Source: an uncultured bacterium
GTDB taxonomy: Bacteria; Margulisbacteria; WOR-1; JAKLHX01
Assembly: GCA_964597815.1 (NCBI GenBank)
Contig: CAZQZN010000003.1
Coordinates: 8,519-72,518 of the forward strand
DNA length: 64,000 bases
Direction: 5' to 3'
The notes beneath the pieces were generated by a model. That model saw nothing but the letters and a program-made list of their open reading frames with translations. It searched no databases and was not told the DNA's origin. The translations under genes and the position numbers were made by a program. Position 1 is the first letter of the stretch. The number at the start of each line of letters is the position of its first letter. Below are positions 33,879 through 64,000 of this stretch, piece by piece.

Positions 33879-34826
33879 ATGAAGTATTTTATTTTGGGCG
33901 GTGCGGGATTCATAGGAAGCAATCTTTTAGCGAGATTATTTGAGGAAGAAAAAGATTTTGAAGCTATTGTCTTTGACAATTTGTCTTCCGGGAAAATGGA
34001 ATATATTTCTGATTTCATAAACACTAAAAATTGCCGTTTTATCAACGATGATATTAAAAACTTGGAATCATTGATTAATTCAATGAAGGGAGTTGATATC
34101 GTTTATCATTTTGCATCAAATCCTGATATCTCAAAAGCAGTAAAACAGCCTGATATTGATTTTTGGGAAGGGACTTATTTGACAAATAATATTCTGGAAG
34201 CGATGAGGACAAATGGAGTCAAAAAGCTCCTTTATGCATCTGGAAGCGGCGTATATGGTGAAGTTGGAATGAATAAAGTAAAAGAAGATTATTCTCCTAT
34301 GCTTCCTATATCTACCTACGGTGCTAGCAAATTGGGTTGTGAAGCTCTGATATGTTCATATTCTTATATGTTTGGTATTGATGCTGTTGCTTTTAGATTC
34401 GCAAATGTTGTAGGGCCAAATCAAACACACGGTGTTGCTTATGATTTTATCAGAAAGTTAAAACAAACTTCTTCTCAGCTTGAGATATTGGGCGATGGCA
34501 CTCAAGACAAATCCTATATTTATGTTTCAGATGTTATTGATGCAATGCGATTGGTAGAAAAAAAATATTTAAATGATTTTAATTATTTCAATGTGGCAAC
34601 CGAGGATTCAATTACAGTAAAACAAATTGCGGATATTGTTGTGAATTTAATGGGATTAAAAGATGTAAAATATATTTATAGCGGTGGCAGCCGAGGTTGG
34701 AAGGGCGATGTTCCAAAAATTTATTTGGATTCAACAAAGATCAGAAAGCTCGGCTGGAAAAATAAATTTAACTCTCATGAGGCGATAATGAGATCTGTAA
34801 GAGAAATGCTTGAAAAATCTGCTTGA
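33879..34826 (+). CDS. NAD-dependent epimerase/dehydratase (extended SDR)
   Basis: GGAGFIGSNL Rossmann motif and YGASK (YxxxK). 315 aa. Confidence 0.8.
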   Translation: MKYFILGGAGFIGSNLLARLFEEEKDFEAIVFDNLSSGKMEYISDFINTKNCRFINDDIKNLESLINSMKGVDIVYHFASNPDISKAVKQPDIDFWEGTYLTNNILEAMRTNGVKKLLYASGSGVYGEVGMNKVKEDYSPMLPISTYGASKLGCEALICSYSYMFGIDAVAFRFANVVGPNQTHGVAYDFIRKLKQTSSQLEILGDGTQDKSYIYVSDVIDAMRLVEKKYLNDFNYFNVATEDSITVKQIADIVVNLMGLKDVKYIYSGGSRGWKGDVPKIYLDSTKIRKLGWKNKFNSHEAIMRSVREMLEKSA

Positions 34827-35635
34827 AAGTGGTGTGGTTTGGATTTATGGGATTATTAGATTTATTTGCAAAAAAACAATCTCCCTTGGAAGTCCCTGAT
34901 GAAAATTTGCCTCAGGTTAAAACATGTGTTTATGCAACATGTTTCAATGAATCAGCTATCTTGCCTTTTTTTCTTGAATATTATCTTTCGTTTTGTGATG
35001 AAGTTGTTATATATGACAATTCCTCAACAGATAATTCGGTTGCAATAGTAAATTCTTATCCGCGAACAAGGGTTGTAAGTTATGACACTGGTGAGAATAG
35101 AGATGACATACTTTTAATTATGAAAAACAATATGTGGAAAGAAGCAAGGCCAAGATTTGATTTTGTTATAGTTGTAGATCCTGATGAATTTGTTTATTAT
35201 CCCAATATAAAAAAACTTTTGCGTTATTGCAAAAAGGAAAATATAACTATATTGCACCCAAAAGGATTTAATATGGTAAGCGAAAATTTTCCGCAAAAAG
35301 GCATTTCAATTATTGATCAGATAAAAAATGGTGTGCCAGAGTGGCATTACAGCAAAAAATGCGTATTCAACCCCAATAAAATTAGGGAAATAAATTATAC
35401 TGTTGGTGCTCATAAAGCTGTACCAAGAGGCAAAGTTAAATATTTTTCTTCTCCCGATTTAAAACTTTTGCATTATAGATACATTGGCCTTGAATATTAT
35501 TTGAGCAAAATAAAAAACGCAAGGCAATCCGAAGTCAACCGAAAAAATAATTGGGGGGCTTATTTGGATTATCCGCAAGAATATCATGTGAACAAGTTTA
35601 ATGAAATATTATCAAAAGCCCAAAAGGTAATATAA
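34823..35635 (+). CDS. Glycosyltransferase family 2-like (Glyco_tranf_2_4 type)
   Basis: CFNESAILPFFLEYY...VIYDNSSTDNS and a DPDEF acidic motif. Confidence 0.55.
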   Translation: MKVVWFGFMGLLDLFAKKQSPLEVPDENLPQVKTCVYATCFNESAILPFFLEYYLSFCDEVVIYDNSSTDNSVAIVNSYPRTRVVSYDTGENRDDILLIMKNNMWKEARPRFDFVIVVDPDEFVYYPNIKKLLRYCKKENITILHPKGFNMVSENFPQKGISIIDQIKNGVPEWHYSKKCVFNPNKIREINYTVGAHKAVPRGKVKYFSSPDLKLLHYRYIGLEYYLSKIKNARQSEVNRKNNWGAYLDYPQEYHVNKFNEILSKAQKVI

Positions 35636-35636
35636 A

Positions 35637-36617
35637 GTGATAATAACAAGAAGTCCTTTAAGAATTTCTCTCGGCGGTGGAGGTACTGATTTGCCTTCTT
35701 ATTACAGCCAATATGGTGGTTTTTTGATCGCCGCGGCAATTGATAAATATGTTTATATTACCTTATACAAAATGTTTAATCCCGGTTATTTATTAAAATA
35801 CTCCCAGCTTGAAAGAGTTGAAAAAATAGATGAAATAAAACATCCAATAATAAGAGAATCTCTTAAAATGCTGAATTTTGAAAATGATCATTTGGAAATA
35901 ACAAGCATGGCTGATATTCCTGCAGGTACAGGGCTTGGATCTTCTGGAAGTTTTACCACGGCCCTGTTAAAAGCACTTCATATTTTCAAAAGAAATTTGG
36001 TGCATCCAAAAGAATTGGCTGAGCAGGCATGCGAAATAGAGATAAACAGATTGCAAGAACCAATTGGTAAACAAGATCAATATATTGCCGCTTATGGCGG
36101 GCTTACGTGTTTTACTTTTGAGAGAAACGGGAATGTGCTGGCTGAACCACTAAAAATTTCAAAAGAAACTTTGTTTGATTTGGAAGATAATCTCTTGCTT
36201 TTTTTTACAGGATATTCAAGATCAGCTTCATCAATTTTGAAAGAACAAGATCAGAAAAGTAAAAATAATTCAAAAGAAATGGTTGATAATTTGCACTTTA
36301 TCAAAGAGCTTGGACTAAAAAGCAAAGCTGCACTTGAAAATGGAAATATGCAGGAATTTGGCGATTTGATGAATATCCATTGGGAATATAAGAAAAAAAG
36401 ATCTTCCTCTATGACTAATCCAAAAATAAACGAATGGTATGAAACAGCTTTGAAAAACGGAGCAATTGGCGGGAAACTTATAGGCGCCGGTGGCGGAGGA
36501 TTTTTGATGTTTTATGCTTCTGACAAATCTAAATTAAGGCATGCAATGATGGCTCAAGGTTTGGAAGAGATTAGATTTAGATTTGATTTTGAAGGCACAA
36601 AGGCGGTTGTTCAGTGA
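35637..36617 (+). CDS. hddA: GHMP kinase, probable D-glycero-alpha-D-manno-heptose 7-phosphate kinase
   Basis: GHMP ATP-binding motif PAGTGLGSSGS. Sits alongside hddC, gmhA and gmhB. Confidence 0.7.
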   Translation: MIITRSPLRISLGGGGTDLPSYYSQYGGFLIAAAIDKYVYITLYKMFNPGYLLKYSQLERVEKIDEIKHPIIRESLKMLNFENDHLEITSMADIPAGTGLGSSGSFTTALLKALHIFKRNLVHPKELAEQACEIEINRLQEPIGKQDQYIAAYGGLTCFTFERNGNVLAEPLKISKETLFDLEDNLLLFFTGYSRSASSILKEQDQKSKNNSKEMVDNLHFIKELGLKSKAALENGNMQEFGDLMNIHWEYKKKRSSSMTNPKINEWYETALKNGAIGGKLIGAGGGGFLMFYASDKSKLRHAMMAQGLEEIRFRFDFEGTKAVVQ

Positions 36618-37318
36618 TGCTGCCAAAAGTTGCAATTCTTGCCGGCGGTCTTTCGACTCGCCTTTATCCAGTAACCAAAACAATTCCGAAATCATTGGTG
36701 GAAGTTGATGGGAAACCATTTATTGATTATCAATTAAGAATGTTGGCAGCAAAAAGCATAAAAAGCGTAGTTTTATGTGTTGGTTATTTGGGTGAAATGA
36801 TAGAAGAATATGTTAAAGATGGGGGAAAATATAACCTTCAAGTGGATTATTCTTTTGATGGAGAAAAACTGCTTGGCACTGGTGGTGCGTTAAAAAAAGC
36901 ACTGCCAAAACTATCAGATGATTTTTTTGTGATGTACGGAGATTCTTTTATTGAACCCGAATTTGATAAAATTTATCAGCACTATTTAAATGTTGGCAAA
37001 AAAGCGATTGTTGTTGTTTACAAAAATTTTGATAGGTGGGACAAAAGCAATATCATATATAAAAACGGAATAATTCTCGAATATGATAAGAAGAATAAAT
37101 TGCCCGAAATGGATTACATTGATTGGGGATTATCTTTGTTGAATAAAAAACATTTTGAAAGTATTGAGGAAGGAAAAGAAACTGATCTTTCTGAAATTTT
37201 AAAATCTCTTGCAGATAAGAAGGAACTCTATGGCTATGAGGTTTTTGAAAGATTTTATGAAATTGGTTCATTTAATGGACTAAACGAAGTTAGAAAAAAG
37301 ATAGGAGAGAGAAAATGA
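36614..37318 (+). CDS. hddC: Sugar-1-phosphate nucleotidyltransferase, probable D-glycero-alpha-D-manno-heptose 1-phosphate guanylyltransferase
   Basis: VAILAGGLSTRLYPVTKTIPKSLVEV N-terminal NTP-transferase motif. 234 aa. Confidence 0.7.
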   Translation: MMLPKVAILAGGLSTRLYPVTKTIPKSLVEVDGKPFIDYQLRMLAAKSIKSVVLCVGYLGEMIEEYVKDGGKYNLQVDYSFDGEKLLGTGGALKKALPKLSDDFFVMYGDSFIEPEFDKIYQHYLNVGKKAIVVVYKNFDRWDKSNIIYKNGIILEYDKKNKLPEMDYIDWGLSLLNKKHFESIEEGKETDLSEILKSLADKKELYGYEVFERFYEIGSFNGLNEVRKKIGERK

Positions 37319-37910
37319 AATATATTGATAAGTACTTTGATGCTGCAAACAATTGCTTGATAAAATTGACAAAAAAGATATCAAAAAAATACTTGAAATA
37401 CTTGTAAAAGTCAAAGAAAAAAATGCCCGCCTTTTTATCATAGGTGTTGGGGGCGGTGCGGGCAATGCCGGACATGCAGTAAATGATTTTAGAAAAATTG
37501 CTGGTATAGAGACTTATGCACCTACTGACAATGTTTCAGAATTGACTGCTCGTGCAAATGATGATGGCTGGGACAGCGTTTTTGTAAGCTGGCTAAAAAC
37601 AAGCAAGTTGTCAAAGGATGATTGTGTTTTTGTTTTTTCTGTTGGCGGGGGAGATGCTCAAAGAAAAATAAGCAACAATATAGTTGAAGCACTTAAATAT
37701 GCAAAAGATGTTGGCTCAAAAATTATTGGTATTGTTGGCAGAAATGGCGGTTTTACTGCAGAAGTTGCTGATGCTATTGTTTTAATACCCGTTGTAAATG
37801 AAGACTTGACAACACCATTAACAGAATCTTTTCAAGCGGTTGTTTGGCATCTTTTGGTCTCACATCCTCTTTTAAAATCAAATGAAATGAAATGGGAATC
37901 AATTAAATAA
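37315..37910 (+). CDS. gmhA: Phosphoheptose (sedoheptulose 7-phosphate) isomerase, SIS domain. An apparent 1-nt frameshift separates the first 15 codons from the rest.
   Basis: SIS motif IIGVGGGAGNAGHAVNDF, SVGGGDAQ. The ATG at ~37315 overlaps the hddC stop (ATGA) and encodes MKYIDKYFDAANNCL in the +1 frame relative to the main ORF, which starts at TTG 37353. Confidence 0.75.
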
Positions 37911-37911
37911 A

Positions 37912-38490
37912 ATGAATAAGGCAGTTTTTCTTGACAGAGATGGAGTAATAAATCAGCTTATCGTAAATCCATTGACACAAGAGGTTGAATCTCCGAATAA
38001 TCCCTCTGAATTAGTAATATTACCCGGTGTGATTGAAGCTTTAAAAAAAATCTTAAAGGCTGATTATTTGCTTTTTATTATCTCTAATCAACCAAGTTAT
38101 GCAAAAGGCAAAACCTCTTTGGAAAATCTTTTTGCTGTTCATGATAAGTTGCATTCAGTTTTTGTTGAAAATGGGATACTTTTTTCGGAGTATTATTACT
38201 GTTATCACCATCCTGAAGGGATTATCCCAGAATATTCAATAAAGTGTGATTGCCGAAAACCCGGTCAAAAAAATGTTATTGATGCCATAAAAAAATATAA
38301 TCTTGATGTTAATAAATCTTGGTTTGTTGGCGATCAGGATATGGATATTGAGTGTGGGAAAATTGCTGGCATAAAAACGATTTTAATTGAAAATGAATTG
38401 TCAATTTCAAAAAGAGGCAAAACTAATCCTGATTATTTTGCAAAAAATCTGCCACAAGCAGTTGATATAATATTAAAAAATGAAAGTTAA
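37912..38490 (+). CDS. gmhB: D,D-heptose 1,7-bisphosphate phosphatase (HAD-IIIA)
   Basis: AVFLDRDGVIN, GDQDMD. 192 aa. Confidence 0.8.
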   Translation: MNKAVFLDRDGVINQLIVNPLTQEVESPNNPSELVILPGVIEALKKILKADYLLFIISNQPSYAKGKTSLENLFAVHDKLHSVFVENGILFSEYYYCYHHPEGIIPEYSIKCDCRKPGQKNVIDAIKKYNLDVNKSWFVGDQDMDIECGKIAGIKTILIENELSISKRGKTNPDYFAKNLPQAVDIILKNES

Positions 38491-38501
38491 GGATTAAAAC
38501 A

Positions 38502-39267: not shown

Positions 39268-40371
39268 TTGGAAAAAATTGATTTTGCTATTATTGGTGCT
39301 GGGGTTATAGGGCTGTCGATCGCATATAATCTTTCAAAAAACAAATCAGCTGAGATAGTTGTATTTGAAAAAAATGATTCTTTTGGGCAGGGAATATCAA
39401 GCAGAAACAGCGAAGTGATCCACGCTGGAATATATTATCCAATAAATTCATTGAAAAGCCGCCTTTGCATTAATGGCAATAAATTGCTTTATGAGTTTTG
39501 TCAAGAACACAGTATTCCGTTTAATAAATGCGGGAAAATTATCGTTGCTACTAATGGTTCCGAATTAAAACTGTTGGATAAAATTTTTGACAATGCTGTT
39601 GATTGCGGTGCCTCAGGCTTAAAAAAACTTACAGAAAAAGAAATAAAAAACATTGAGCCGGAAGTTTTTGCTGTTGGGGGGATATATTCATCGGAAAGCG
39701 GAATATTAAATACTCATTCCCTCATGCAAAAATTATTTGACTTATCAAAAGATAACGGTGTTATGTATTCTTTTAAGAGTGAAGTTGTTGATATAAAAAG
39801 AAAAGACGATGGTTATTATATAAAATCTCAAAAAGAAGAAATACTTACAAAATTTGTGATAAATTGTGCCGGGTTGCAAAGTGATAAAATAGCAAAGATT
39901 GCTGGATTTGATATTGAAAAACTCGGGTATAAAATTTATTATTGCAAAGGTGATTATTTTGCTGTTTCTTCTTCAAAGGATAAATTGAAACATCTTGTTT
40001 ATCCAGTTCCTCATGAAAAAGGTTATGGTTTGGGAGTACATGCAACTATAGATTTGTCCGGCAGAATAAGGTTAGGCCCGGATGCAAATTATGTTGATTT
40101 AGAAAATTATGAAGTTGATTCAAACAAATTAGATGATTTTTATCAATCTGCCAAAAAATATCTTCCATGGCTAAAAAAAGAATATCTTATGCCCGACACT
40201 TCTGGCATAAGGCCAAAGATTCAAGGTCCTGATGATTCAATTAAGGATTTTATCATAAATGAGGAAAGCGAGAATGGTTTTCCTAATTTTATTAATTTAA
40301 TTGGAATTGAATCTCCGGGATTGACAAGCTGTTTAGCTATTGCCGATCTCGTTGATGAAATTATTGACTGA
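39268..40371 (+). CDS. FAD-dependent oxidoreductase (DAO / L-2-hydroxyglutarate oxidase-like)
   Basis: FAD motif IIGAGVIGLSIAY. TTG start. 367 aa. Confidence 0.7.
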   Translation: MEKIDFAIIGAGVIGLSIAYNLSKNKSAEIVVFEKNDSFGQGISSRNSEVIHAGIYYPINSLKSRLCINGNKLLYEFCQEHSIPFNKCGKIIVATNGSELKLLDKIFDNAVDCGASGLKKLTEKEIKNIEPEVFAVGGIYSSESGILNTHSLMQKLFDLSKDNGVMYSFKSEVVDIKRKDDGYYIKSQKEEILTKFVINCAGLQSDKIAKIAGFDIEKLGYKIYYCKGDYFAVSSSKDKLKHLVYPVPHEKGYGLGVHATIDLSGRIRLGPDANYVDLENYEVDSNKLDDFYQSAKKYLPWLKKEYLMPDTSGIRPKIQGPDDSIKDFIINEESENGFPNFINLIGIESPGLTSCLAIADLVDEIID

Positions 40372-40469: not shown

Positions 40470-40498
40470 TTGACAACAAATTGCTATATTGCTATAAT
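40470..40498 (+). promoter_or_regulatory. Perfect-consensus sigma70 promoter (TTGACA, 17 nt spacer, TATAAT) at the head of the nonulosonate sub-operon
   Basis: ttgaca at 40470-40475 and tataat at 40493-40498, inside a 175 nt intergenic gap and ~45 nt upstream of the Fe-ADH start. Confidence 0.55.
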
Positions 40499-40546: not shown

Positions 40547-41704
40547 GTGAGGGATTTTAGATTTTTTTTGTCAACAGATTTGAGGTTTGGTAATAATCAA
40601 TGCTTAAAATTGCCTGATTATATAAAAGATTTAGGTCATTCTAAAATTGCTTTGATTATCGATAATGGAGTCGTAAATAACCAACAGGTCATTAAATGTA
40701 TTAATTCACTAAAAGATAATAATATTTCCTTTGATATTTATGTAAACGAATCTGTTGAGCCAACTTATGATTATCTTGAAGATTTTAGAAAAAGATTCAT
40801 TGGCAAAAGTTATGATTGTTTGGTAGGAATAGGTGGCGGAAGCACTCTCGATCTTACAAAGGGTATTGCCACACTTTTAACTAATGATGGAGAAGCTATA
40901 TCATTTAGAGGATTCCCAAAATTAAAGAACAAACCTCTTCCAATTATTGCAATTCCAACAACTGCTGGGACGGGAAGCGAAGTTACCTATAATGCTGTAT
41001 TTACGGATTCAAAAGAAAAGAAAAAACTCGGAATTAATTCCACATTAAATTTTCCATCTTTAGCTATTATTGATCCTTTGATCTATATTGGAATGCCTGA
41101 AAAAGCTGCAATTTCTTCTGGATGCGATGCTCTTGTCCATACATTAGAAAGTTATGTTCATAAAAACAATACTCCAATTTCAAGAATTTTTTCTAAAGAA
41201 GCATTCCGATTGTTATTCAATAATCTAAACAGGTTATTGGAAGATTTTAACAATACTGATATTTGGGGAGCGCTTTCATTAGGCGCTTATTTAGCAGGTA
41301 TTGCGCTTATAAATGCGGGATCTGGGCCTTCTGGCGCATTTTCTTATCCGCTTGGGGCCGTTTATAAAGTGCCACATGGATACGCTGGCGCAGTTTTTAT
41401 TTCCAAAATTACAAAAATAAATGTTGAAAAAGGATATACTGATTATGCGGATCTTTACGATTTGATAGAAGGAGCTGATAAAACTATTTCAAACGAAGAT
41501 AAAAATTTAAAGTTTGCTGTTGAGTTACAAAATTTAATGGATAAGTTAAAAGTCCCAAGAAATTTAAGGGATTTTGGTTTAAAAAAGCCTGATATTGAAT
41601 TTTTGCTGTCACAATATGATATTTTAAAAGGGGCAATTGATCAAAACCCTATTGAAATAACTAAAGAAGATTGCAAAAAAATGTTTCAAGAATTATTTGA
41701 ATAA
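40547..41704 (+). CDS. Iron-containing (group III) alcohol dehydrogenase family protein
   Basis: GGGSTLDLTKGIA and AIPTTAGTGSEVT, the metal-binding His region. GTG start. Confidence 0.75.
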   Translation: MRDFRFFLSTDLRFGNNQCLKLPDYIKDLGHSKIALIIDNGVVNNQQVIKCINSLKDNNISFDIYVNESVEPTYDYLEDFRKRFIGKSYDCLVGIGGGSTLDLTKGIATLLTNDGEAISFRGFPKLKNKPLPIIAIPTTAGTGSEVTYNAVFTDSKEKKKLGINSTLNFPSLAIIDPLIYIGMPEKAAISSGCDALVHTLESYVHKNNTPISRIFSKEAFRLLFNNLNRLLEDFNNTDIWGALSLGAYLAGIALINAGSGPSGAFSYPLGAVYKVPHGYAGAVFISKITKINVEKGYTDYADLYDLIEGADKTISNEDKNLKFAVELQNLMDKLKVPRNLRDFGLKKPDIEFLLSQYDILKGAIDQNPIEITKEDCKKMFQELFE

Positions 41705-42890: not shown

Positions 42891-43532
42891 ATGAACAAAT
42901 TGAGTTTTCTTGGTGTTATCCCAGCACGAGGCGGAAGCAAGGGGATACCAAAGAAAAATATTAAAATAATAGCGGGGAAACCTCTTATTGCATGGACAAT
43001 AGAATCAGCAAAAAAATCAAAACTGTTGGATCATTTTGTTGTTTCTACTGAGGATGCTGAGATTGCTCAAATTTCTAGAAGCTATGGTGCGGAAGTGATT
43101 GACAGGCCATTTGAACTTGCAACCGATGAAGCAACAACCATTTCTGTGCTTCAACATGTTCTTACAAAGATTGAATCTGAAAACATTGTTCTGCTTCAGC
43201 CCACTTCTCCTGTTAGAGATATTGATTTGATTGATCAATGCATCAAAAAATTTGACTTTACAAAAGCCGACAATCTTGCAACTGGATTTGTTTGCAAATT
43301 GTTTGAATATGGGGCATATACTCAAAGGAGACAGGACTTAAATGGTTTTTTTCATGATGATGGCAATGTTTATGTAGTAAAATCAGATCTTATCAAAAAA
43401 GGAACTTTGTATGGAGAAAATGTTGAACGCCTTGAAATTTCAAAAGAGCAAAATTTTGAAATTGATGATGAATTTGATTTTTGGTTGAACGAACAAATAC
43501 TGCTAAAAAGGATAAGCGAGGGTAGGCAATAG
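42891..43532 (+). CDS. Acylneuraminate cytidylyltransferase family (CMP-nonulosonate synthetase, NeuA/LegF-like)
   Basis: GVIPARGGSKGIPKKNIKIIAGKPLIAWTIESA. 213 aa. Confidence 0.8.
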   Translation: MNKLSFLGVIPARGGSKGIPKKNIKIIAGKPLIAWTIESAKKSKLLDHFVVSTEDAEIAQISRSYGAEVIDRPFELATDEATTISVLQHVLTKIESENIVLLQPTSPVRDIDLIDQCIKKFDFTKADNLATGFVCKLFEYGAYTQRRQDLNGFFHDDGNVYVVKSDLIKKGTLYGENVERLEISKEQNFEIDDEFDFWLNEQILLKRISEGRQ

Positions 43533-53611: not shown

Positions 53612-53627
53612 AAAGAGGAGAAGAAAA

Positions 53628-55384: not shown

Positions 55385-55385
55385 A

Positions 55386-57158: not shown

Positions 57159-57805
57159 AAAAAACTAAAGCAATTATATTTGATTTTGATGGTGTTATTG
57201 CTGAATCAATGGATATTAAAGCAAAAGGCTTTGCCTTTTTATTCAAGGATTATCCTGAATATGTTGATGAAATCGTAAAATTTCATCTTGCTCATGGAGG
57301 AATGGGGCGAATCTCAAAATTTGAATACATTTATGCAAATTTTTTAAACAAACCACTTTCTGAAGAAGAAAAAGTAAAACTCAGTGAGCAATTTAGTGAT
57401 TTTGTTTTTAATGAGATTCTCAAATGTCCGCTTGTAAAAGGTGCAAAAGAATTTTTAGAAAAATACTATAAGGATTTTGATATGTTTGTGGTATCAGGCA
57501 CTCCGGATGAAGAAATAAAAAAAATTGTTTTAGAAAGAGGTCTTGAAAAATATTTTGTTGGAATATTTGGTTCCCCAAAGAAAAAAGAACAAATCAACAG
57601 GGAATTGCTCGATAAATATGGTTATTTGCCTCAGGAAGTTGTTTTCATTGGGGATTCTATAGACGATTACATTGGAGTAAAAGATCTCGGCATTAGGTTT
57701 ATAGGTAGAGTACAAAAGGATGATCCATTTAAGGGACTTGATATTGAGGGAAGAATTAAAGATATAACTGAACTAGAAAGAGTTTTGGGAATAAAAAATG
57801 TTTAA
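57155..57805 (+). CDS. HAD-IA family hydrolase/phosphatase
   Basis: Motif I IIFDFDGVI, motif IV GDSIDD. Confidence 0.75.
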   Translation: MKKTKAIIFDFDGVIAESMDIKAKGFAFLFKDYPEYVDEIVKFHLAHGGMGRISKFEYIYANFLNKPLSEEEKVKLSEQFSDFVFNEILKCPLVKGAKEFLEKYYKDFDMFVVSGTPDEEIKKIVLERGLEKYFVGIFGSPKKKEQINRELLDKYGYLPQEVVFIGDSIDDYIGVKDLGIRFIGRVQKDDPFKGLDIEGRIKDITELERVLGIKNV

Positions 57806-58451
57806 ATTGTTATCATATCCTTTAAGTGAAAAAACGCCTTTATATGGGGAAACAAAATCTGTTATTGTTGAAGCTGAAAAACAAATAAGCAAAGGTGATT
57901 CTTGCAACACATTTTATTTGAAATTTTCAAATCACAGCGGGACACATATTGATTCTCCAAACCATTTTTATGAAAATGGACGGTCACTTTCACAATATAG
58001 CATTGAGGAATTCATTTTCACGAAGCCGTTTTTGCTTGATATTGAGATAGGAGAAGGGCAGCTTATTACGTCAAAATTTTTGAAAAACATTCCAACATGT
58101 GATTTGCTTTTGATTAGAAGCGGCTTTTATAAATATCGTAATTTGGAAAAATACAAATTCAATAATCCGGGTATATCAGTTGAAGCTGCGAAAACTATAA
58201 GAGAAAACTATCCTGATATCAGAGCTATTGGAGTTGATTTTATTTCAATTAGTTCTTATTCTCACAGAGAAGAAGGGCGTCAATCTCATAGGATTTTGCT
58301 TGATCCCTGTTATCATAAAAACAGTCCGATTTTATTAATAGAAGATATGAATTTATCGGATGATCTTGCAGGGTTAAAAAAAGTTTTTGCTGTGCCAATT
58401 TTTTTTGAAGGAGTAGATAGTATGCCTTGCACCGTAATAGGGGAGTTATAA
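57798..58451 (+). CDS. Putative cyclase family protein (kynurenine formamidase-like fold)
   Basis: HSGTHIDSPNHF metal-binding motif. Confidence 0.6.
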   Translation: MFKLLSYPLSEKTPLYGETKSVIVEAEKQISKGDSCNTFYLKFSNHSGTHIDSPNHFYENGRSLSQYSIEEFIFTKPFLLDIEIGEGQLITSKFLKNIPTCDLLLIRSGFYKYRNLEKYKFNNPGISVEAAKTIRENYPDIRAIGVDFISISSYSHREEGRQSHRILLDPCYHKNSPILLIEDMNLSDDLAGLKKVFAVPIFFEGVDSMPCTVIGEL

Positions 58452-60224
58452 ATGAAACTTGTTGTGGATACGCCTGAAAGGATTGTTAATATAGCAGAAA
58501 AATTTTCTGAAAGAGATGATTGGGACTGGTGTTATTTTGGAATTGAAATGGATAGAAAGAATCATTTTTTTTTGAAAATGTCAGCGGGTAAAAAGCACCA
58601 CTATGCAAAAGAACTCAATTCAATAGCGCACAATCTAAAAACACCATTTTTAGATTGGATTTCACGATTGAATATGGGTCGCTGTGAAGATGTAATTTGG
58701 TGGAGCAAACAGTTACCATCAAAATCAGTGTGTCAGACGGATTTCTTCTTATTTGTCTGTTATTTTAATTTGGCAAAGAAATGGTTAACTACAAACCAAT
58801 TCGAAAGAACAAGATTAATTGCCGTTGAAGATCCTTTTCTGCTTAAAATGCTAAAAGATTCATTTGGAGTTTCAGAAAAGAACAGAATAGCTGAGAAAAT
58901 TTTAATAAAAAAATTTGTGATTTCTATATTCAAGTTTTTTTTTATTAGAATTTTGTTTTTATCAAAATATATAACGCTTATTTTTTTTGATAAACTGCGA
59001 AAAATAACCAACTTTAGAAAATATCATGATATGGTTAGATTCAAACCAGACATTTTGATTTATACATGGGTCGAAGAAAGATGTTTTAAAAACAAATCTT
59101 TTCAAGATGTATATTTTAATGATTTGGCGTCTTTATATTCGAGGAATGGATATAAGACCATGCTAGCGGTGCCAGTTTGGTTGTCAGCGCGCTTAAAGAA
59201 GCGCATACTTGATTCAAATGTGCATGTGGTTATATCGAGTTATTTTCTTAGTATTTTAGATTGTTTGAAAACCGTTTTAACTATTCCTCCTACTTATCCT
59301 AATGGTAATAAAAAAATTTTTTTTGGCGATGATTATACTTTATTATTTTCGAGGGAATATTTGCTTGAAATAACTTCAATGGCATTTTTAACAAACTTGT
59401 TGGAATATTATGCTTATTTGAATTATTTTAATAGTGCGAAAAAGATAAAATTACTTATTTACCCTTTTGAAAATCAACCTTGGGAAAAAATGTTGATTTT
59501 ATCATCGAGAAAATCTCGTGCAGTAAAAAAAATAGTTGCTTATCAACACTCCTCAATTCCAAGCTTGCTTTTAAATTATTTTATTGGCAAAGAGGAAGGA
59601 GCGCACATGCCTTTGCCTGATCAAATAATTGCTAATGGTGAATATCATAAAAAACTATTTTTTGCCTCAAATTACGAGGGGGTGGATATAGAAAATGGTG
59701 GTTCGTTAAGATATAAAGAAGTCCTCAAATTTGAGAATAAAAATGTTGTTTTATCTTCTAAAAAGAGAATATTGGTTCTGCTGCCAGGTGTATTATCGCG
59801 GGCAATGGAAATATTATACAGCATCAAAAGATTCAAGCAAAGAGATGATTATGAGATCTTAATTCGTTTACATCCAGACTTGCCTGTGGATAAAATAAAA
59901 CAATTAATTATTGATATTGGCGAAAAAGTAAAGATTGACGAGACAAAAAATCTTTATGAAGTATTGTCTCAGACGTCAGCAGTTGTCCATGCTGGCACGA
60001 CTGCAGCACTGGAAGCATATTATAAGGGATTAAAGGTGTTCAAATTCATGACAGAGCTAATTGATTTAGATATTTTGTCTGATTTGGGACTCGATCAAGA
60101 GGAAATAGAAGATTTTTCAGAAATTAGCTTCGAAAGACAAGTGCTATCTCACAAGGAAATAACCAATATTTTAGTAGAACCCGTAAAGGAAAAAGTATGG
60201 CTTTCATTAATTCAAAAAGAATAA
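58452..60224 (+). CDS. Hypothetical 590 aa protein. Possible GT-B / KpsC-KpsS-like ulosonic-acid transferase, based on an HP motif only.
   Basis: No recognisable family. IRLHPDLP motif in the C-terminal half. Confidence 0.3.
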   Translation: MKLVVDTPERIVNIAEKFSERDDWDWCYFGIEMDRKNHFFLKMSAGKKHHYAKELNSIAHNLKTPFLDWISRLNMGRCEDVIWWSKQLPSKSVCQTDFFLFVCYFNLAKKWLTTNQFERTRLIAVEDPFLLKMLKDSFGVSEKNRIAEKILIKKFVISIFKFFFIRILFLSKYITLIFFDKLRKITNFRKYHDMVRFKPDILIYTWVEERCFKNKSFQDVYFNDLASLYSRNGYKTMLAVPVWLSARLKKRILDSNVHVVISSYFLSILDCLKTVLTIPPTYPNGNKKIFFGDDYTLLFSREYLLEITSMAFLTNLLEYYAYLNYFNSAKKIKLLIYPFENQPWEKMLILSSRKSRAVKKIVAYQHSSIPSLLLNYFIGKEEGAHMPLPDQIIANGEYHKKLFFASNYEGVDIENGGSLRYKEVLKFENKNVVLSSKKRILVLLPGVLSRAMEILYSIKRFKQRDDYEILIRLHPDLPVDKIKQLIIDIGEKVKIDETKNLYEVLSQTSAVVHAGTTAALEAYYKGLKVFKFMTELIDLDILSDLGLDQEEIEDFSEISFERQVLSHKEITNILVEPVKEKVWLSLIQKE

Positions 60225-61522
60225 TTGATGCCTTCAGATACATATTGAGTCCTTATCAATTTGGTTTTGTAGTGGGGCATTATTATCTTGATAAAACCAA
60301 AATTGAAGAAGTAAAAGATATATTGTTTTCTAGTTCGAATGAAAAATTGCGACAAGACTATGAAAGAAAATTGGCTGGGCTTATTGGTGATGGCTATGTT
60401 GTTAGCTTTGCTGCTGGGCGAATGGCATTCTACACTCTGCTCAAAGTTTTGAAAATTGGTTATGGTGATGAGGTACTTATGACCGGTTTTACTTGTTCTG
60501 TTATGGTAAACGCTGTTTTGAGAGTAGGGGCAAAGCCGATATTTGCCGATATTGATCCTGAAAACTTTGGACCAGATCCTTACGATCTGGAAATGAAAAT
60601 AACTCCTCATACCAAGGTTATAGTTGCCCAGCATTCTTTTGGCATACCATGTAACATATTAGCTATTTCAAAATTGGCAAAAGAAAAAAATATTTTTCTT
60701 GTTGAAGACAGCGCAATTACGCTGGATTCCAGTTTTAACGGGGTTAAAACTGGAAATTGGGGTGATGCTGCTATCTTTTCTTCTGATCATTCCAAACCGA
60801 TTAATACATTGATTGGTGGCTATCTCTATACTAGAAATCAACGACTTTATCAAGCAATTTTAAATGCTTCTGTTGATTTGCCTGAATTGGACCATAATCA
60901 TAAAGTTCGGCTTTTTAATAGATTATTATATGAAAAAATTTTTTTTAATCCTAAAAACTATAAATGGGATAAAATATTTGACGTTTACAATTTAATAACT
61001 AGAAAAATTTTTGGACGCAAAAATGAACTTGTTTTTCTCGAGGATGATTATGATCGTCCGATTTCTGCTAATTATCACTATCCTGCTAAATTGCCATCTT
61101 TCTTAGCTAAGGTTGGAATGTTTGAGTTGGATCGTTGGAGTGATGAAAAAAATATACGGAAAAATATTTTGAAAAGATATTTGGAAGTGATAAAGGAGAC
61201 AAAATACGCTGAAACTATTCCGAAGGCTTATTTAGACGCTAATCTTGAAATTACACCTTTACGATTTGTTTTTTGTACTCCTGATGCAAAGGGATTGAGC
61301 AAGCAAATGGCTTCTTTGGTAGATATCAATTGGACATGGTTTAAATACCCGATAATCTGTTGTTCAAAAGGTCCAGAAACTATGGGATATGTTCCCGGAA
61401 GTTGTCCTAATGCTGAAAAGGCTGGGAAAATGATTATTAACTGGCCATGTGTTGTTGCTCGAGGATGGGAAAATAAATTGATTTCTGAGTTTGATAGAAT
61501 AATAAAAGGAGATCATATATGA
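60197..61522 (+). CDS. Divergent DegT/AHBA-synthase-fold PLP enzyme with N-terminal extension
   Basis: FSSDHSKPI PLP-Lys motif, FAAGRMAFY...GDEVLMTGFTC. 441 aa. Confidence 0.6.
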   Translation: MAFINSKRIIDAFRYILSPYQFGFVVGHYYLDKTKIEEVKDILFSSSNEKLRQDYERKLAGLIGDGYVVSFAAGRMAFYTLLKVLKIGYGDEVLMTGFTCSVMVNAVLRVGAKPIFADIDPENFGPDPYDLEMKITPHTKVIVAQHSFGIPCNILAISKLAKEKNIFLVEDSAITLDSSFNGVKTGNWGDAAIFSSDHSKPINTLIGGYLYTRNQRLYQAILNASVDLPELDHNHKVRLFNRLLYEKIFFNPKNYKWDKIFDVYNLITRKIFGRKNELVFLEDDYDRPISANYHYPAKLPSFLAKVGMFELDRWSDEKNIRKNILKRYLEVIKETKYAETIPKAYLDANLEITPLRFVFCTPDAKGLSKQMASLVDINWTWFKYPIICCSKGPETMGYVPGSCPNAEKAGKMIINWPCVVARGWENKLISEFDRIIKGDHI

Positions 61523-62664
61523 TACCAGTATCACGTCCTTCAATTGGAAAAGAGGAATTAATGGCAGTAGAAAAGGTTTTTCAAACCGGTTGGCTTGGAT
61601 TAGGTTCTTTTGTTTTTGATTTTGAAAATATGATCAAGGAATATCTCCCAGCAAAAAATGTCATTGCTGTCAATACAGGGACAACTGCTTTACATATTGC
61701 TCTTGATGCACTTGGAATTGGCCATGGCGATGAGGTGATTGTCCCATCACTTACCTTTGCTGCTTCTGTTCAAGCCATTACTCAAACTGGTGCTTCTCCT
61801 GTATTTTGTGAAGTAAACGAGTTTGATTTGAATATTGATGTATCGGATGTTAAAAAAAGAATTACTAAAAGAACTAAAGCAATATTGCCAGTCCATTACT
61901 GTGGCAAATCTTGTGATATGGATTCATTAATGGAATTAGCTGATAAGAACGGAATAAAAATTGTTGAAGATGCTGCTCATGCATTTGGATCAAGCTATAA
62001 AGGCAAAAAAATAGGGAGTTTTGGTCACATAACCTGTTTTAGTTTTGATCCGATCAAAAATATTACAACAGGGGAAGGTGGTGCGGTTGTAGTGGGTGAT
62101 GACGAATTGGCTGAAAAAATACGAAGAAAAAGGATCCTTGGTATAGATAAGGATACTTGGTACAGATATCAAAACAAGCGGTCTTGGTTTTATGAGGTGC
62201 TGGAACAAGGGTATCGCTATCACATGAGCAATATAAATGCTGCTATTGGTATTGAGCAGTTCAAAAAACTAGATCGATTTATTTTAAGAAAAAGAGAAAT
62301 TACTAAAAGATATGATCAGGCTTTTTCAGAATTAGATGGCGTCAAAATTTTGGAAAATGATTATAATGAAACGGCTCAATTTTGTTACATAATTAGGGTA
62401 CTTAATAACAAAAGAGACCTCTTGATGGATTATCTAAAGGATAAAGGAATAGGTTCAGGAGTGCATTACATACCTAATCATTTACAACCTTTTTTTAAAA
62501 CTTATCATGTAAAACTTCCGATAACAGAAAAAATTTCTGAGGAGATACTGACTTTGCCGTTATATTACGATATGACAGATTATAATGTAGAATCGGTAAT
62601 TAATTCAGTTAGGAGTTTTTTCATTAATAATAGAGATATTAAATACAGAATTATGAATGCTTGA
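61519..62664 (+). CDS. DegT/DnrJ/EryC1/StrS family aminotransferase
   Basis: FSFDPIKNITTGEGG PLP-Lys motif. Confidence 0.8.
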   Translation: MIPVSRPSIGKEELMAVEKVFQTGWLGLGSFVFDFENMIKEYLPAKNVIAVNTGTTALHIALDALGIGHGDEVIVPSLTFAASVQAITQTGASPVFCEVNEFDLNIDVSDVKKRITKRTKAILPVHYCGKSCDMDSLMELADKNGIKIVEDAAHAFGSSYKGKKIGSFGHITCFSFDPIKNITTGEGGAVVVGDDELAEKIRRKRILGIDKDTWYRYQNKRSWFYEVLEQGYRYHMSNINAAIGIEQFKKLDRFILRKREITKRYDQAFSELDGVKILENDYNETAQFCYIIRVLNNKRDLLMDYLKDKGIGSGVHYIPNHLQPFFKTYHVKLPITEKISEEILTLPLYYDMTDYNVESVINSVRSFFINNRDIKYRIMNA

Positions 62665-62797
62665 TGAAGATGAAGAATGAAGATCGATGAATTATAGGGT
62701 TTGAACAGCTTGTTTTATTAGCATATGTCGTGGTGCAACTTGATTAAGTATTCAGTAAATTCTGTCAATAAGCAGTTAATGATAGAGGACCAAATAA

Positions 62798-63766
62798 ATG
62801 TTGCCTAAAGTAAGTGTTAATATTTGTTGTTACAATAGTGAAAAATTTATTAAAGAGACAATACAAAGTGTTTTAGATCAAACTTATAAAGAATTTGAAA
62901 TTATTATTATTGATGATGGATCAAAAGATAAGACTGGAGAGATAGTTAAAAGCATAAAGGACTCTAGGGTTAAATACTATTATCAGGATAATATGGGACT
63001 ATCAGCATCGAGAAATCGTGCGCTTGAGATGTCTAAAGGGGAATACGTTGCCTTGCTTGATCACGATGATATTTGGGAACCAGAAAAGCTTGAAAAACAA
63101 GTTGCTTTGATTGATTCTAATAAAAATCTTGGACTTGTATTTTCAGATTCATACATTATTGATAAAAATGGAAAAATAAAAGGCACTTTTTTTGAATTGA
63201 ATCGTCCTGCAAGGGGACAAGTTACAAAAGAATTGATTAATGCTGATTTTATTCCATGTTTGACCGCTGTTATGCGAAAAAGTTATATGGAAAAGGTAGG
63301 AAATTTTAAGAATGAACTTAAAATAGCTGAAGAATATGATTATTTTCTAAGGCTCTCGCTTATAAGCGATTTTGATTATGTAAATGCGCCATTGGCAAAA
63401 TATAGATTACATCAAGGAAATGCTAGTAAAGATATAATAAGAATGCACATGGAAGAAATAGTTTGTCTTTCAGAAATATCCAAATCAGTAAATGATGCTG
63501 CAATTATGCAAAATATCGAAAAACGAATAAAAAAAACATTTATGATTATAGGGCTTAATATTGCTGTTTGTTCATATAAAGAAAAAATTGAGAGATGGAA
63601 TGATGCAATAAATGTGTTTGTAAATATTGATTCTGTTTTTAACAAGATAGGGTTTCTGTTATTGTTATTATTTCCATCATATTTGAATATTTTTTTAAAG
63701 AAAATGTTTAAATTCATTAAAATTCTGTTCAATATTAAATTTAAAAAGCAAATACAAAATTTATAA
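62798..63766 (+). CDS. Glycosyltransferase family 2
   Basis: VSVNICCYNSEKFI...IIIDDGSKD and the DHDD (DxD) motif. Confidence 0.8.
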   Translation: MLPKVSVNICCYNSEKFIKETIQSVLDQTYKEFEIIIIDDGSKDKTGEIVKSIKDSRVKYYYQDNMGLSASRNRALEMSKGEYVALLDHDDIWEPEKLEKQVALIDSNKNLGLVFSDSYIIDKNGKIKGTFFELNRPARGQVTKELINADFIPCLTAVMRKSYMEKVGNFKNELKIAEEYDYFLRLSLISDFDYVNAPLAKYRLHQGNASKDIIRMHMEEIVCLSEISKSVNDAAIMQNIEKRIKKTFMIIGLNIAVCSYKEKIERWNDAINVFVNIDSVFNKIGFLLLLLFPSYLNIFLKKMFKFIKILFNIKFKKQIQNL

Positions 63767-63782
63767 AAGCGAAGATTTAATA

Positions 63783-64000
63783 ATGCCATTAATGCATTCT
63801 TATTTTGATTTGCATAAGAAAAAATGGAACAAACAAAATATGCCAAGTAAGTTTAATGATCCAAATGTCTGCGGGTTTTATATGGGGCTTGTTAAAGATT
63901 TATCTTCTTCAGATATTTTAGAACTTTCTGTTTTATATCTTAACAATGATATTATTGCGATGCATTATGGATTTGTTTATAACAATAGATATTATTGGTA
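63783..64000 (+). CDS. Partial CDS running off the window end. Possibly a GNAT/FemAB-like acetyltransferase domain.
   Basis: ATG at 63783 with no stop before the window end. ...LYLNNDIIAMHYGFVYNNRYYW resembles the Acetyltransf_6-type core. Confidence 0.25.
   Translation, partial: MPLMHSYFDLHKKKWNKQNMPSKFNDPNVCGFYMGLVKDLSSSDILELSVLYLNNDIIAMHYGFVYNNRYYW

Follow-up and report, generated by a model that had tools for sequence, protein, structure and literature searches.

Very long blocks of co-oriented surface-glycan genes have been described before, and the one that comes closest to the locus reported here lies in Leptospira. In a stretch 5' of rfb that is linked to serovar, L. interrogans serovar Hardjo carries genes for a 2,4-dihydroxyhept-2-ene-1,7-dioate aldolase, a cytidylyltransferase for 3-deoxy-D-manno-octulosonic acid (Kdo), a phosphoheptose isomerase, an inositol monophosphatase, methyltransferases, a transaminase and NeuB (10.1101/771931). 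Our locus occupies positions 33879-64000 of a 64,000-nucleotide (nt) stretch of contig CAZQZN010000003.1, which belongs to an uncultured Margulisbacteria organism of the WOR-1 lineage; this whole stretch is called the window below. Like rfb and the adjacent 'sru' region of Leptospira Hardjo, to which we liken it by enzyme types, the locus is a very long same-strand block that combines a NeuB-type synthase with an HpcH/HpaI-type aldolase, and its protein of 590 amino acids (aa) shows weak similarity to TIGR04326, a family that takes its name from a Leptospira gene. Its size and modularity are not categorically new, since comparable polysaccharide loci such as Leptospira rfb are known. Two of its blocks, here called cassettes B and D, and two families of proteins with the GT-B glycosyltransferase fold are uncharacterised and widely distributed, including in archaea. 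We show that the two blocks are conserved, widely shared cassettes, and we argue that they probably make unusual acidic sugars activated with cytidine monophosphate (CMP).

Other described systems resemble individual parts of the locus. The legionaminic acid pathway of Campylobacter jejuni and Legionella (LegB/C/H/G/I/F) has six enzyme classes in common with cassette B; unlike this pathway, the locus has no recognisable 4,6-dehydratase and encodes a C4-dehydrogenase-like short-chain dehydrogenase/reductase (SDR) with a CBS domain, its scores for LegB and LegC lie far below cutoff, and it adds a conserved iron-dependent alcohol dehydrogenase (Fe-ADH) and a KdnA-like aminotransferase. In Shewanella oneidensis, KdnB and KdnA (5k8c, 5k8b) form an adjacent pair of Fe-ADH and DegT type, just as in the window, whose aminotransferase is 43% identical to KdnA. 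However, the Fe-ADH of the window is not KdnB-like, and its pair sits in a nonulosonate cassette, also in an archaeon. With the heptose pathway of the C. jejuni capsule (GmhA, HddA, GmhB, HddC, Cj1427) the window shares, at family level, a four-enzyme GDP-heptose-type set with all scores below the equivalog cutoffs. Cj1427 oxidises C4 of GDP-heptose with retention of O6 and recycles its bound NADH with 2-oxoglutarate, which yields L-2-hydroxyglutarate (PMC10680097), and a possible L-2-hydroxyglutarate oxidase in the window matches this 2-oxoglutarate ping-pong chemistry. In contrast to the capsule pathway, the Cj1427-like SDR of the window belongs to the nonulosonate cassette and bears an N-terminal CBS domain, and a transaldolase is added. 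The Kdo pathway (KdsD, KdsA, KdsC, KdsB) has a KdsB-family cytidylyltransferase and a phosphatase in common with the window, whereas cassette D lacks KdsA, has a class II pyruvate aldolase at the C-C bond-forming position and a phosphatase of HAD-IA rather than KdsC type, and adds methyltransferases, an SDR and a 2-hydroxyacid dehydrogenase. Finally, the pseudaminic/legionaminic acid (Pse/Leg) transferases of Tannerella forsythia are GT-B/TagB-like proteins with an HP motif encoded beside CMP-sugar loci, the HP motif being a functional signature of bacterial sialyltransferases (PMC5420450). Tanf_01245, TFUB4_00887 and the bacterial GT-B sialyltransferases thus resemble the candidate transferase of the window in fold, in HP motif and in a position directly 3' of CMP-nonulosonate genes, whereas the family in the window has no Pfam match and shows no evident D/E-D/E-G motif, a conserved FLDEY standing instead.

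Between 33879 and 63766 the locus consists of 30 complete plus-strand open reading frames (ORFs) in an unbroken series, as seen in the ORF listing and in scans against Pfam and NCBIfam. Its build is modular, with a heptose-type module A (33879-39221), the nonulosonate cassette B (40547-50181), a Wzx gene as block C (50326-51867) and cassette D (51867-63766). A preliminary description of this DNA had proposed a same-strand glycan superlocus of about 30 kb, and the family scans bear this out, together with its two different CMP-sugar synthetases (a NeuA/PseF-like enzyme of 213 aa and a KdsB-type enzyme recognised by NF009905), NeuB (TIGR03569) and NeuC (TIGR03568), both above cutoff, the Wzx flippase, the HpcH aldolase, the 2-hydroxyacid dehydrogenase and the cyclase. 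Some of its counts needed correction. Five pyridoxal 5'-phosphate (PLP) enzymes had been listed, four of them of DegT type; the latter are present (at 41697, 47807, 60197 and 61519), and no fifth PLP enzyme was found in the interval. The four SDRs it named are only three extended SDRs (33879, 46434, 56292), and its three glycosyltransferases became two of GT2 type (34823, 62798) plus two GT-B-fold proteins without a Pfam match. It had passed over the transaldolase, the FAD oxidoreductase, the Fe-ADH, two S-adenosylmethionine (SAM)-dependent methyltransferases and the KdnA likeness of one DegT enzyme.

Our most specific reading is a tentative one, possible rather than probable. It holds that cassette B makes a triamino nonulosonate whose terminal carbon is aminated by the KdnB/KdnA-like pair (predicted neutral mass ~349.15 Da), that cassette D makes a CMP-ulosonic acid by way of a class II pyruvate aldolase, that each of the two products has its own HP-motif GT-B transferase family, and that both pathways are undescribed. 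The genes of cassette B are these:

40547..41704, plus strand: Fe-ADH, closest solved relatives DhaT and FucO
41718..42890, plus strand: KdnA-like DegT aminotransferase, 43% identity over 335 aa to Shewanella KdnA (5k8b), PLP lysine conserved
42891..43532, plus strand: short CMP-nonulosonate synthetase of 213 aa (CTP_transf_3; PseF/NeuA-like), 135 bits for PseF against a cutoff of 206
43612..44652, plus strand: NeuB-type nonulosonate synthase, TIGR03569 at 490 bits (cutoff 400)
44637..45797, plus strand: NeuC-type hydrolysing 2-epimerase for nucleoside-diphosphate N-acetylhexosamine, TIGR03568 at 462 (cutoff 236)
45808..46437, plus strand: PglD/NeuD-family N-acetyltransferase, TIGR03570 above cutoff
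46434..47810, plus strand: CBS domain fused to an extended SDR (CBS-SDR) with motif STCSVYG, SDR part 36.5% identical to PDB entry 6vo6
47807..49003, plus strand: DegT sugar 4-aminotransferase (DegT2), TIGR04181 at 214 bits (cutoff 420)
49000..50181, plus strand: 393-aa GT-B protein, no Pfam match, fold from an AlphaFold2 (AF2) model, overlapping the DegT2 stop by 4 nt

We compared cassette B between the window and five other loci, from a Margulisiibacteriota genome (L027), a Micrarchaeota archaeon (L029), an Omnitrophica genome (L030) and metagenome contigs (L033, L034). The order Fe-ADH, KdnA-like aminotransferase, CMP-synthetase of ~210 aa and NeuB is kept in the window and in 5/5 of the other loci, and NeuC, the PglD-like enzyme, a CBS-SDR of ~460 aa and DegT are also found in the window order in L027, L030 and L034. 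Extra genes are inserted within the cassette in L027 and L034, and in L029 the order of the cassette differs, with the CBS-SDR on the opposite strand. Protein identities between the window and L027, L029 and L030 range from 39 to 83%. Among solved structures, the KdnA-like enzyme scores 292 bits with KdnA and 159 bits with the next structure; its family comprises more than 2,800 matches at E < 1e-60 with 65-84% identity, carries the JGI label KdnA and includes a best match of 84% identity in a Margulisiibacteriota metagenome-assembled genome (MAG).

Because the Fe-ADH/KdnA-like pair keeps its order with the CMP-synthetase and NeuB, we assign it to the nonulosonate cassette and not to Kdo metabolism of the lipopolysaccharide (LPS) core. 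Its substrate is probably a nonulosonate or another acid sugar, and not Kdo, since the pair lies inside a nonulosonate cassette and is present in an archaeon. As regards the pathway to 8-amino-8-deoxy-Kdo (Kdo8N), a KdnA-type aminotransferase is present and so is an adjacent, conserved Fe-ADH, the latter with weak similarity to KdnB; a setting of Kdo in the LPS core was not found, the pair always lying within the NeuB/CMP-synthetase cassette, including on the Micrarchaeota contig. By analogy, the pair suggests an extra amination. A search of the literature returned no paper tying Kdo8N enzymes to nonulosonate clusters.

The preliminary description had combined a heptose, a nonulosonate of legionaminic type and a second ulosonate module, and all three modules are there; the label 'legionaminic-type', for want of a recognisable 4,6-dehydratase, is doubtful and only partly supported. 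At class level, 6/6 enzyme classes of the legionaminic pathway are present in cassette B, with the NeuB-type, NeuC-type and PglD-type enzymes all above curated cutoffs. The LegC-type aminotransferase and the CMP-Leg synthetase belong to the right family and score below the subfamily cutoffs (214/420 and 135/206, respectively), and against the model of the 4,6-dehydratase LegB (TIGR04180, cutoff 475) 3/3 SDRs reach only 99-108 bits. The CBS-SDR scores 176-181 bits with 6vo6, which we take to be C. jejuni Cj1427, a non-dehydrating C4-dehydrogenase, and 114 bits with the next structure. A T-D-E or T-D-K pattern marks 4,6-dehydratases, the acidic residue being the dehydratase signature. In the stretch that follows the catalytic Ser/Thr, the CBS-SDR of the window reads T-C-S, three relatives read T-C-S or S-C-S, and 6vo6 reads T-N-S; no acidic residue follows the catalytic Ser/Thr in the first SDR of the locus (SDR1), the CBS-SDR or the third (SDR3). 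Because its motif STCSVYG is without the dehydratase acid, the CBS-SDR is predicted to be a C4-dehydrogenase.

A more conventional account, which we regard as rather unlikely, would have cassette B make ordinary CMP-5,7-di-N-acetyllegionaminic acid (CMP-Leg5Ac7Ac), with the CBS-SDR acting as a non-canonical 4,6-dehydratase, and would have the Fe-ADH/KdnA-like pair separately supply the LPS core with Kdo8N made from Kdo, the reaction known from Shewanella, with activation by the KdsB-type enzyme of cassette D. The full set of legionaminic enzyme classes fits this account, as do the 43% identity of the aminotransferase to KdnA, the KdsB-type gene in the same locus, and a host that, judged by SurA, probably has an outer membrane. 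Additionally, the closest solved relative of the NeuB-type enzyme is Bacillus subtilis SpsE, presumably the synthase step of the sps genes, which reportedly encode a legionaminic acid pathway. It is harder to reconcile with the position of the pair, which lies directly 5' of the CMP-nonulosonate synthetase and NeuB in 6/6 loci, one of them from a Micrarchaeota archaeon; archaea are without LPS, and such an archaeon is not expected to make LPS or Kdo. Furthermore, the SDR scores far below the LegB model and has no acidic catalytic residue, and the Fe-ADH is only distantly related to KdnB. This last observation also weighs against a KdnB/KdnA-like amination of the nonulosonate, DhaT/FucO (E 8e-50) being much nearer relatives of the Fe-ADH than KdnB (E 2.6e-19) is. 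Two further points count against the triamino product: a non-canonical 4,6-dehydratase, if that is what the CBS-SDR is, would make the product ordinary legionaminic acid, and the prediction of a C4-dehydrogenase depends both on our equating 6vo6 with Cj1427 and on the acidic-residue rule for dehydratases.

If the triamino product is nevertheless taken as the working model, cassette B would follow legionaminic-type logic towards a 5,7-diamino nonulosonic acid. The Cj1427-like dehydrogenase would oxidise C4, probably without removal of O6, and transamination and then N-acetylation would follow; hydrolysis and 2-epimerisation by NeuC and condensation with phosphoenolpyruvate (PEP) by NeuB would give a 5,7-diacetamido nonulosonate. 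Because the C4 step would leave O6 in place, this nonulosonate would keep a terminal CH2OH, and the Fe-ADH and the KdnA-like aminotransferase could oxidise and transaminate the terminal carbon, in parallel to the conversion of Kdo to Kdo8N. The sugar would then be activated with CMP and transferred by the adjacent 393-aa GT-B enzyme with its HP motif. Each of these steps has a homologous precedent. We regard the scheme as the most economical reading of the cassette, with ordinary legionaminic acid and a separate role for the extra pair as a serious rival.

Relatives of cassette B differ in their additional genes. In L033, positions 9804-12434 encode a NeuB fused to a B12-binding radical-SAM domain (876 aa), and in L034 a separate B12/radical-SAM gene comes after the cassette. 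A PIG-L deacetylase is found in the variants in L027, L029 and L034 and a formyltransferase also in L029 and L034; the window has neither. In Ca. Kuenenia, these two gene types have recently been tied to free-amine and formylated nonulosonates (preprint 10.64898/2026.04.20.719630).

Cassette D starts at the last nucleotide of the Wzx gene and comprises the following genes:

51867..52625, plus strand: HpcH/HpaI class II pyruvate aldolase (Pfam/NCBIfam)
52622..53611, plus strand: SAM methyltransferase 1 (Pfam)
53589..54404, plus strand: KdsB-type cytidylyltransferase, NF009905 at 302 bits (cutoff 255)
54401..55384, plus strand: SAM methyltransferase 2 (327 aa), with a weak zinc-ribbon-like N-terminal Pfam match and a class I methyltransferase domain
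55365..56288, plus strand: D-2-hydroxyacid dehydrogenase, similar to phosphoglycerate dehydrogenase (PGDH) and glyoxylate reductase (Pfam/NCBIfam)
56292..57158, plus strand: short extended SDR (SDR3, 288 aa), the most constant neighbour of the 590-aa protein in relatives
57155..57805, plus strand: HAD-IA phosphatase (Pfam/NCBIfam)
57798..58451, plus strand: PF04199 'cyclase', an arylformamidase-like metal hydrolase (Pfam)
58452..60224, plus strand: 590-aa GT-B protein, no Pfam match, fold from an AF2 model, weak similarity to TIGR04326
60197..61522, plus strand: 441-aa half-DegT protein, N-terminal half with the DegT fold (Pfam positions 4-195 of 360)
61519..62664, plus strand: full-length DegT aminotransferase, PseC/ArnB-like, with 66-68% identity to the corresponding enzymes of L002, L003 and L032
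62798..63766, plus strand: GT2 glycosyltransferase, in the same position in L002, L003, L031 and L032

To survey this cassette, a genome collection was scanned for homologs of the 590-aa protein, and the proteins of the window were compared by tblastn with the 25 loci that carry one. Near the homolog, we found HpcH in 7/25 loci, a KdsB-type enzyme in 10/25, the 2-hydroxyacid dehydrogenase in 11/25 and SDR3 in 11/25, the last usually adjacent to it. The 327-aa methyltransferase and the HAD phosphatase also occur near these homologs, the cyclase does so in some loci, and some relatives carry a SIS isomerase as well. In the better-conserved loci the identities are 45-67%. The hosts, known from MAGs, include Elusimicrobia, a Desulfobacterota-type worm symbiont, Dehalococcoidales, Planctomycetia, Omnitrophota, Nitrospira, Thermoanaerobaculia and others. 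One Elusimicrobia locus (L002) is syntenic with the window over ~15 kb, in the order CMP-synthetase, 393-aa homolog, Wzx, HpcH, KdsB, methyltransferase, 2-hydroxyacid dehydrogenase, 590-aa homolog, half-DegT, DegT and GT2, after which come two large membrane proteins. The half-DegT protein, whose C-terminal half has no family match, lies directly 3' of the 590-aa homolog in L002, L006, L007, L031 and L032, that is, in bacteria as well as in Methanolobus. In a Pseudomonadota MAG (L032), which has Wzy_C upstream, the cassette is laid out as in the window, and a complete Methanolobus genome (L031) has this layout without the HpcH aldolase and the KdsB-type enzyme, in place of which positions 3377-5872 encode a radical-SAM/SPASM protein, a different CTP_transf_3 protein and an adh_short protein; the core of dehydrogenase, SDR, HAD, cyclase, GT-B protein and half-DegT is kept. 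The HpcH aldolase, the 2-hydroxyacid dehydrogenase and the cyclase, which the preliminary description had set apart as enzymes foreign to glycan loci, are therefore no oddities, as they belong to a widespread conserved cassette.

Seen against the CMP-Kdo pathway, the cassette has the KdsB step, and all PDB matches of its KdsB-type enzyme are KdsB or KpsU (E ~1e-39), with Escherichia coli KpsU as the best. Neither KdsA (DAHP_synth_1/KdsA) nor a KdsC-type phosphatase was found in the locus, NeuB being its only PEP-dependent synthase and the phosphatase being of HAD-IA type. In our literature search no paper assigned a product to cassette D, and HpcH and a cytidylyltransferase came up together only in one unrelated genome report. 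Cassette D may make a second CMP-activated keto-acid sugar along Kdo-like lines, with a class II aldolase taking over from the PEP-dependent synthase. The 2-hydroxyacid dehydrogenase, SDR3 and the HAD phosphatase would prepare an aldehyde acceptor, the HpcH aldolase would join this aldehyde to pyruvate or hydroxypyruvate, and the methyltransferases would decorate the product by O-methylation; activation with CMP by the KdsB-type enzyme and transfer by the 590-aa GT-B enzyme would complete the route.

It could also be that cassette D makes no new sugar at all, although we think this improbable. The KdsB-type enzyme would then be a capsule-type, KpsU-like CMP-Kdo synthetase working on Kdo from another source, and the remaining enzymes would be responsible for a non-sugar substituent such as a methylated glycerate or a group of lactate type; the 590-aa protein would have the role of a Kdo transferase or a phosphotransferase. 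Such a role agrees with a KdsB-type enzyme that passes the NCBIfam KdsB subfamily cutoff and has KpsU as its best PDB match, and with loci L015, L020, L023 and L031, where the 2-hydroxyacid dehydrogenase, HAD, SDR3 and methyltransferase accompany the 590-aa protein without HpcH and KdsB. On the other hand, in 7 loci of several phyla HpcH and KdsB lie side by side or are separated by a single gene, no KdsA/KdsC-type gene is part of cassette D, and a variant of the cassette is present in an archaeon. For a CMP-ulosonic acid made with the class II aldolase, the difficulties are of a different kind: since Methanolobus replaces both the aldolase and the KdsB-type enzyme, the core of the cassette may serve other chemistry, and the roles given to the 2-hydroxyacid dehydrogenase, SDR3, HAD, cyclase and half-DegT are guesses.

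Each cassette contains one of the two GT-B proteins. Neither has a Pfam match or a sequence homolog in the PDB, neither belongs to a sialyl- or Kdo-transferase family of Pfam or NCBIfam, and by BLASTP the two are not recognisable paralogues. AF2 models give both of them the two-Rossmann GT-B fold. The model of the 393-aa protein (predicted local distance difference test, pLDDT, of 93) is closest to TarL/TagF, 2-epimerases and polysialyltransferase, with structural comparison values of 15.7 for TarL, ~14.8 for 2-epimerases, 14.1 for TagF, 12.7 for SiaD and 12.2 for Bcs3; that of the 590-aa protein has a pLDDT of 92. A His-Pro pair after a beta-strand is conserved in both families. All 47 sequences compared from the 590-aa family have H474-P475; across 51 sequences of the 393-aa family, whose motif is AAHP, the proline never varies, and the conservation of the alanines and the histidine is at least 90%. 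A clear D/E-D/E-G motif was not seen in the consensus of either family. The 393-aa protein follows the nonulosonate cassette both in the window and in L027, where the homolog is 53% identical; it is 43% identical to a named Margulisiibacteriota match. The 590-aa protein follows the KdsB cassette, and its family has 2,219 cluster representatives at E <= 1e-30. Its score of 84 bits for TIGR04326 (cutoff 250), confined to residues 308-531, makes it a distant relative and not a member, and our literature search found no paper that mentions TIGR04326.

Because of the fold, the HP motif and the adjacency to its own cassette, each GT-B protein was assigned as the transferase of that cassette: the 393-aa protein is a predicted nonulosonate transferase, and the 590-aa protein is a predicted transferase for the CMP-activated product of cassette D. 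These predictions are weakened by the fact that CDP-alditol phosphotransferases and 2-epimerases, too, are found among GT-B folds that have an HP motif.

The Micrarchaeota contig that carries the archaeal cassette B (L029) has a homolog of the 590-aa protein as well. Within its positions 1-3647, a 611-aa fusion of CTP_transf_3 with a class I/V aminotransferase comes before a HAD hydrolase, after which a 608-aa homolog with a weak DUF6716 match is encoded; a PF27859 'LIC12162' protein lies on the other strand.

Ahead of cassette B, the locus opens with a heptose-type module and an oxidoreductase gene:

33879..34826, plus strand: extended SDR (SDR1), epimerase/reductase-like, motif ASGSGVYG...YGASK (Pfam/NCBIfam, motif)
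34823..35635, plus strand: GT-A glycosyltransferase (Glyco_tranf_2_4/GT92-like; counted as GT2; Pfam)
35637..36617, plus strand: GHMP kinase, best NCBIfam model HddA (heptose-7-phosphate kinase) at 168 bits (cutoff 600)
36614..37318, plus strand: sugar-1-phosphate nucleotidyltransferase, best NCBIfam model MurU at 116 bits, HddC at 104 (HddC cutoff 300), both below cutoff
37353..37910, plus strand: SIS-domain isomerase, weakly GmhA-like, NCBIfam 53 bits against 209
37912..38490, plus strand: HAD-IIIA phosphatase, GmhB-like at 112 bits against 178, above the domain cutoffs of TIGR01656 and TIGR01662
38502..39221, plus strand: transaldolase, TIGR02134 at 351 bits (cutoff 282)
39268..40371, plus strand: FAD oxidoreductase (DAO family), L-2-hydroxyglutarate oxidase at 266 bits (cutoff 299), also similar to type-2 glycerol-3-phosphate oxidase

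For 3/4 of the heptose-type enzymes the right enzyme is the best NCBIfam match, the nucleotidyltransferase favouring MurU slightly over HddC. The preliminary description had called this a complete GDP-heptose pathway; heptose-type families are indeed present, but all four enzymes score below the NCBIfam equivalog cutoffs, which counts against the assignment. At family level only, module A fits the synthesis and modification of a nucleotide-activated D-glycero-D-manno-heptose. The transaldolase is a plausible supplier of sedoheptulose-7-phosphate, which the isomerase, GHMP kinase, phosphatase and nucleotidyltransferase would convert to the activated heptose; SDR1 likely modifies it, and the adjacent GT2 enzyme would transfer the modified sugar. 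The FAD oxidoreductase could recycle the L-2-hydroxyglutarate by-product of a Cj1427-type enzyme. This is a weak link, as the enzyme fits a glycerol-3-phosphate oxidase about as well and is absent from cassette B in the other genomes examined.

Taken as a whole, the genes are likely to form a modular locus for a surface glycan that depends on Wzx, be it an LPS O-antigen, a capsule or an O-glycan of proteins or the S-layer. Genes for nucleotide-sugar synthesis and glycosyltransferases are contiguous and co-oriented, as in Wzx/Wzy-dependent clusters, and the only polytopic protein of the interval is the flippase that separates the two cassettes:

50326..51867, plus strand: Wzx-type flippase, PF01943, 10 hydrophobic segments

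No Wzy, Wzz or initiating phosphoglycosyl transferase was detected in 33879-64000 with Pfam, NCBIfam and a check of hydrophobic segments, in agreement with the preliminary description. Its expectation that the locus continues downstream holds as well, because the last gene is cut:

63783..64000, plus strand: Acetyltransf_6 (FemAB-like GNAT, Pfam), 31st plus-strand ORF, partial, leaving the window at 64000

In addition, Wzy-like proteins adjoin cassette D in L002 and L032. Wzx would flip a lipid-linked unit, with the polymerase and the initiating transferase encoded outside the window. Given that neither of the latter was seen in the window, this assembly route is a prediction, and the substrate assignments made above draw on homology at 25-45% identity or on gene neighbourhood; both points weigh against our reading of the locus.

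Within this broad reading, the block may be a protein-glycosylation island, for flagellin, pilin or S-layer, and not an O-antigen or capsule locus, a possibility that we entertain with some doubt. Nonulosonate clusters often serve protein O-glycosylation, and variants of both cassettes B and D are found in archaea. Moreover, GDP-heptose and nonulosonates decorate the S-layer of Kuenenia (preprint 10.64898/2026.04.20.719630), and the Pse/Leg transferases of T. forsythia share the GT-B/TagB-like fold and HP motif (PMC5420450). Yet the window contains no flagellin, Maf, oligosaccharyltransferase or S-layer gene, cassette D is flanked by Wzy-type proteins in L002 and L032, and enzymes of like types stand beside the rfb O-antigen locus of Leptospira.

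At the far end of the scale, it is highly improbable that the locus is a chance juxtaposition of unrelated metabolic genes without a functional unit. The transaldolase, Fe-ADH, FAD oxidoreductase, HpcH aldolase and 2-hydroxyacid dehydrogenase do come from families that are more familiar from central or catabolic metabolism, but they are embedded among NeuB, NeuC, Wzx and glycosyltransferase genes, like combinations are syntenic across distant phyla, and neighbouring genes are tightly coupled in translation. From the first gene onwards the spacings between ORFs are -4, 1, -4, 34, 1, 11, 46, 175, -8, 0, 79, -16, 10, -4, -4, -61, 144, -1, -4, -23, -4, -20, 3, -4, -8, 0, -28, -4 and 133 nt. Most thus lie between -8 and +11 nt, with eight 4-nt overlaps, and tight overlaps of 1-8 nt are common, much as the preliminary description had noted. 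These spacings were computed on the longest ORFs, and the bigger 'overlaps' are an artefact of that choice; the 412-aa ORF, for example, is really one of 393 aa that starts at 49000. Larger gaps occur at four sites only, namely 40371/40547 (175 nt), 43532/43612 (79 nt), 50181/50326 (144 nt) and 62664/62798 (133 nt). The preliminary description had itself named genes scattered in related genomes, or a patchwork of housekeeping genes, as outcomes that would speak against a superlocus; what we found is that two large blocks recur as syntenic cassettes in unrelated genomes. The patchwork of housekeeping genes was rejected on the grounds of this synteny, which is conserved across phyla.

Mass spectrometry of environmental microbes has revealed unassigned higher-carbon ulosonic acids and free-amine nonulosonates (preprint 10.64898/2026.04.20.719630). 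The locus offers two compact gene sets as candidates for CMP-ulosonic acids without a known pathway, and the cassettes are testable routes to possibly new acidic sugars. It also supplies candidate transferases for such sugars, of which, to our knowledge, few are known. If our reading is true, it would extend sialic-acid-like sugar chemistry and provide handles for serotyping, phage-receptor work and enzymatic synthesis; if the predictions fail, what is left is an unexceptional, if large, cluster for an O-antigen or a capsule.

The left border of the locus, at ~33.8 kb, is real, because the genes upstream of it are housekeeping genes: GAPDH, PGK, H+-PPase, CstA, citrate synthase, EF-G, SHMT, FtsX, SurA and PGM, and further PBP1, Map, IspD, a TrpE/PabB-like protein and FtsW/RodA, which ends at 33580. 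SurA, PBP1 and FtsW are consistent with an outer membrane, which the host probably bears. The genes find their best matches in MAGs of Margulisiibacteriota and Elusimicrobiota, the latter with the synteny of L002 and a match of 40% identity. Nothing in the base composition points to a recent acquisition from elsewhere (GC 0.29-0.35 within the locus, 0.30-0.38 upstream of it), and an Rfam scan of the window returned two tRNAs only, both upstream of the locus. Pattern scans for transcription signals gave the following sites:

33556-33572: terminator-like hairpin closing ftsW/rodA (pattern scan)
33833..33862, plus strand: promoter-like site TTGATA-18-TATTAT with TG, just 5' of the first gene (consensus match only)
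40470..40498, plus strand: perfect sigma-70 consensus TTGACA-17-TATAAT with extended -10 TG, in the 175-nt gap before the Fe-ADH gene of cassette B (pattern match only)

The consensus at 40470-40498 suggests that cassette B may be its own transcription unit; overall, the number of sites in the promoter and terminator scans was not above that in shuffled sequence.

Some of the upstream genes appear to be incomplete. An EF-G-like gene is split over three overlapping plus-strand ORFs at 16463-18580, with the GTPase domain and domains II-III in the first (16463-17842), the first half of domain IV in the second (17763-18140) and the remainder of domain IV and the C-terminal domain in the third (18083-18580). 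The split implies two frameshifts, which could reflect a pseudogene or an assembly error. At 30184-30904 on the plus strand lie two short ORFs of 106 and 126 aa; the latter aligns with no more than the first half of the TauE/SafE exporter model, is overlapped by the TrpE/PabB-like gene (start 30882) and may be a truncated gene. Finally, two other plus-strand genes stand among the housekeeping genes; one (12932-13624) encodes a MORN-repeat protein of seven repeats, the other (18583-20451) a protein of 622 aa in which three CarboxypepD_reg domains are combined with an InhA-like MAM region.

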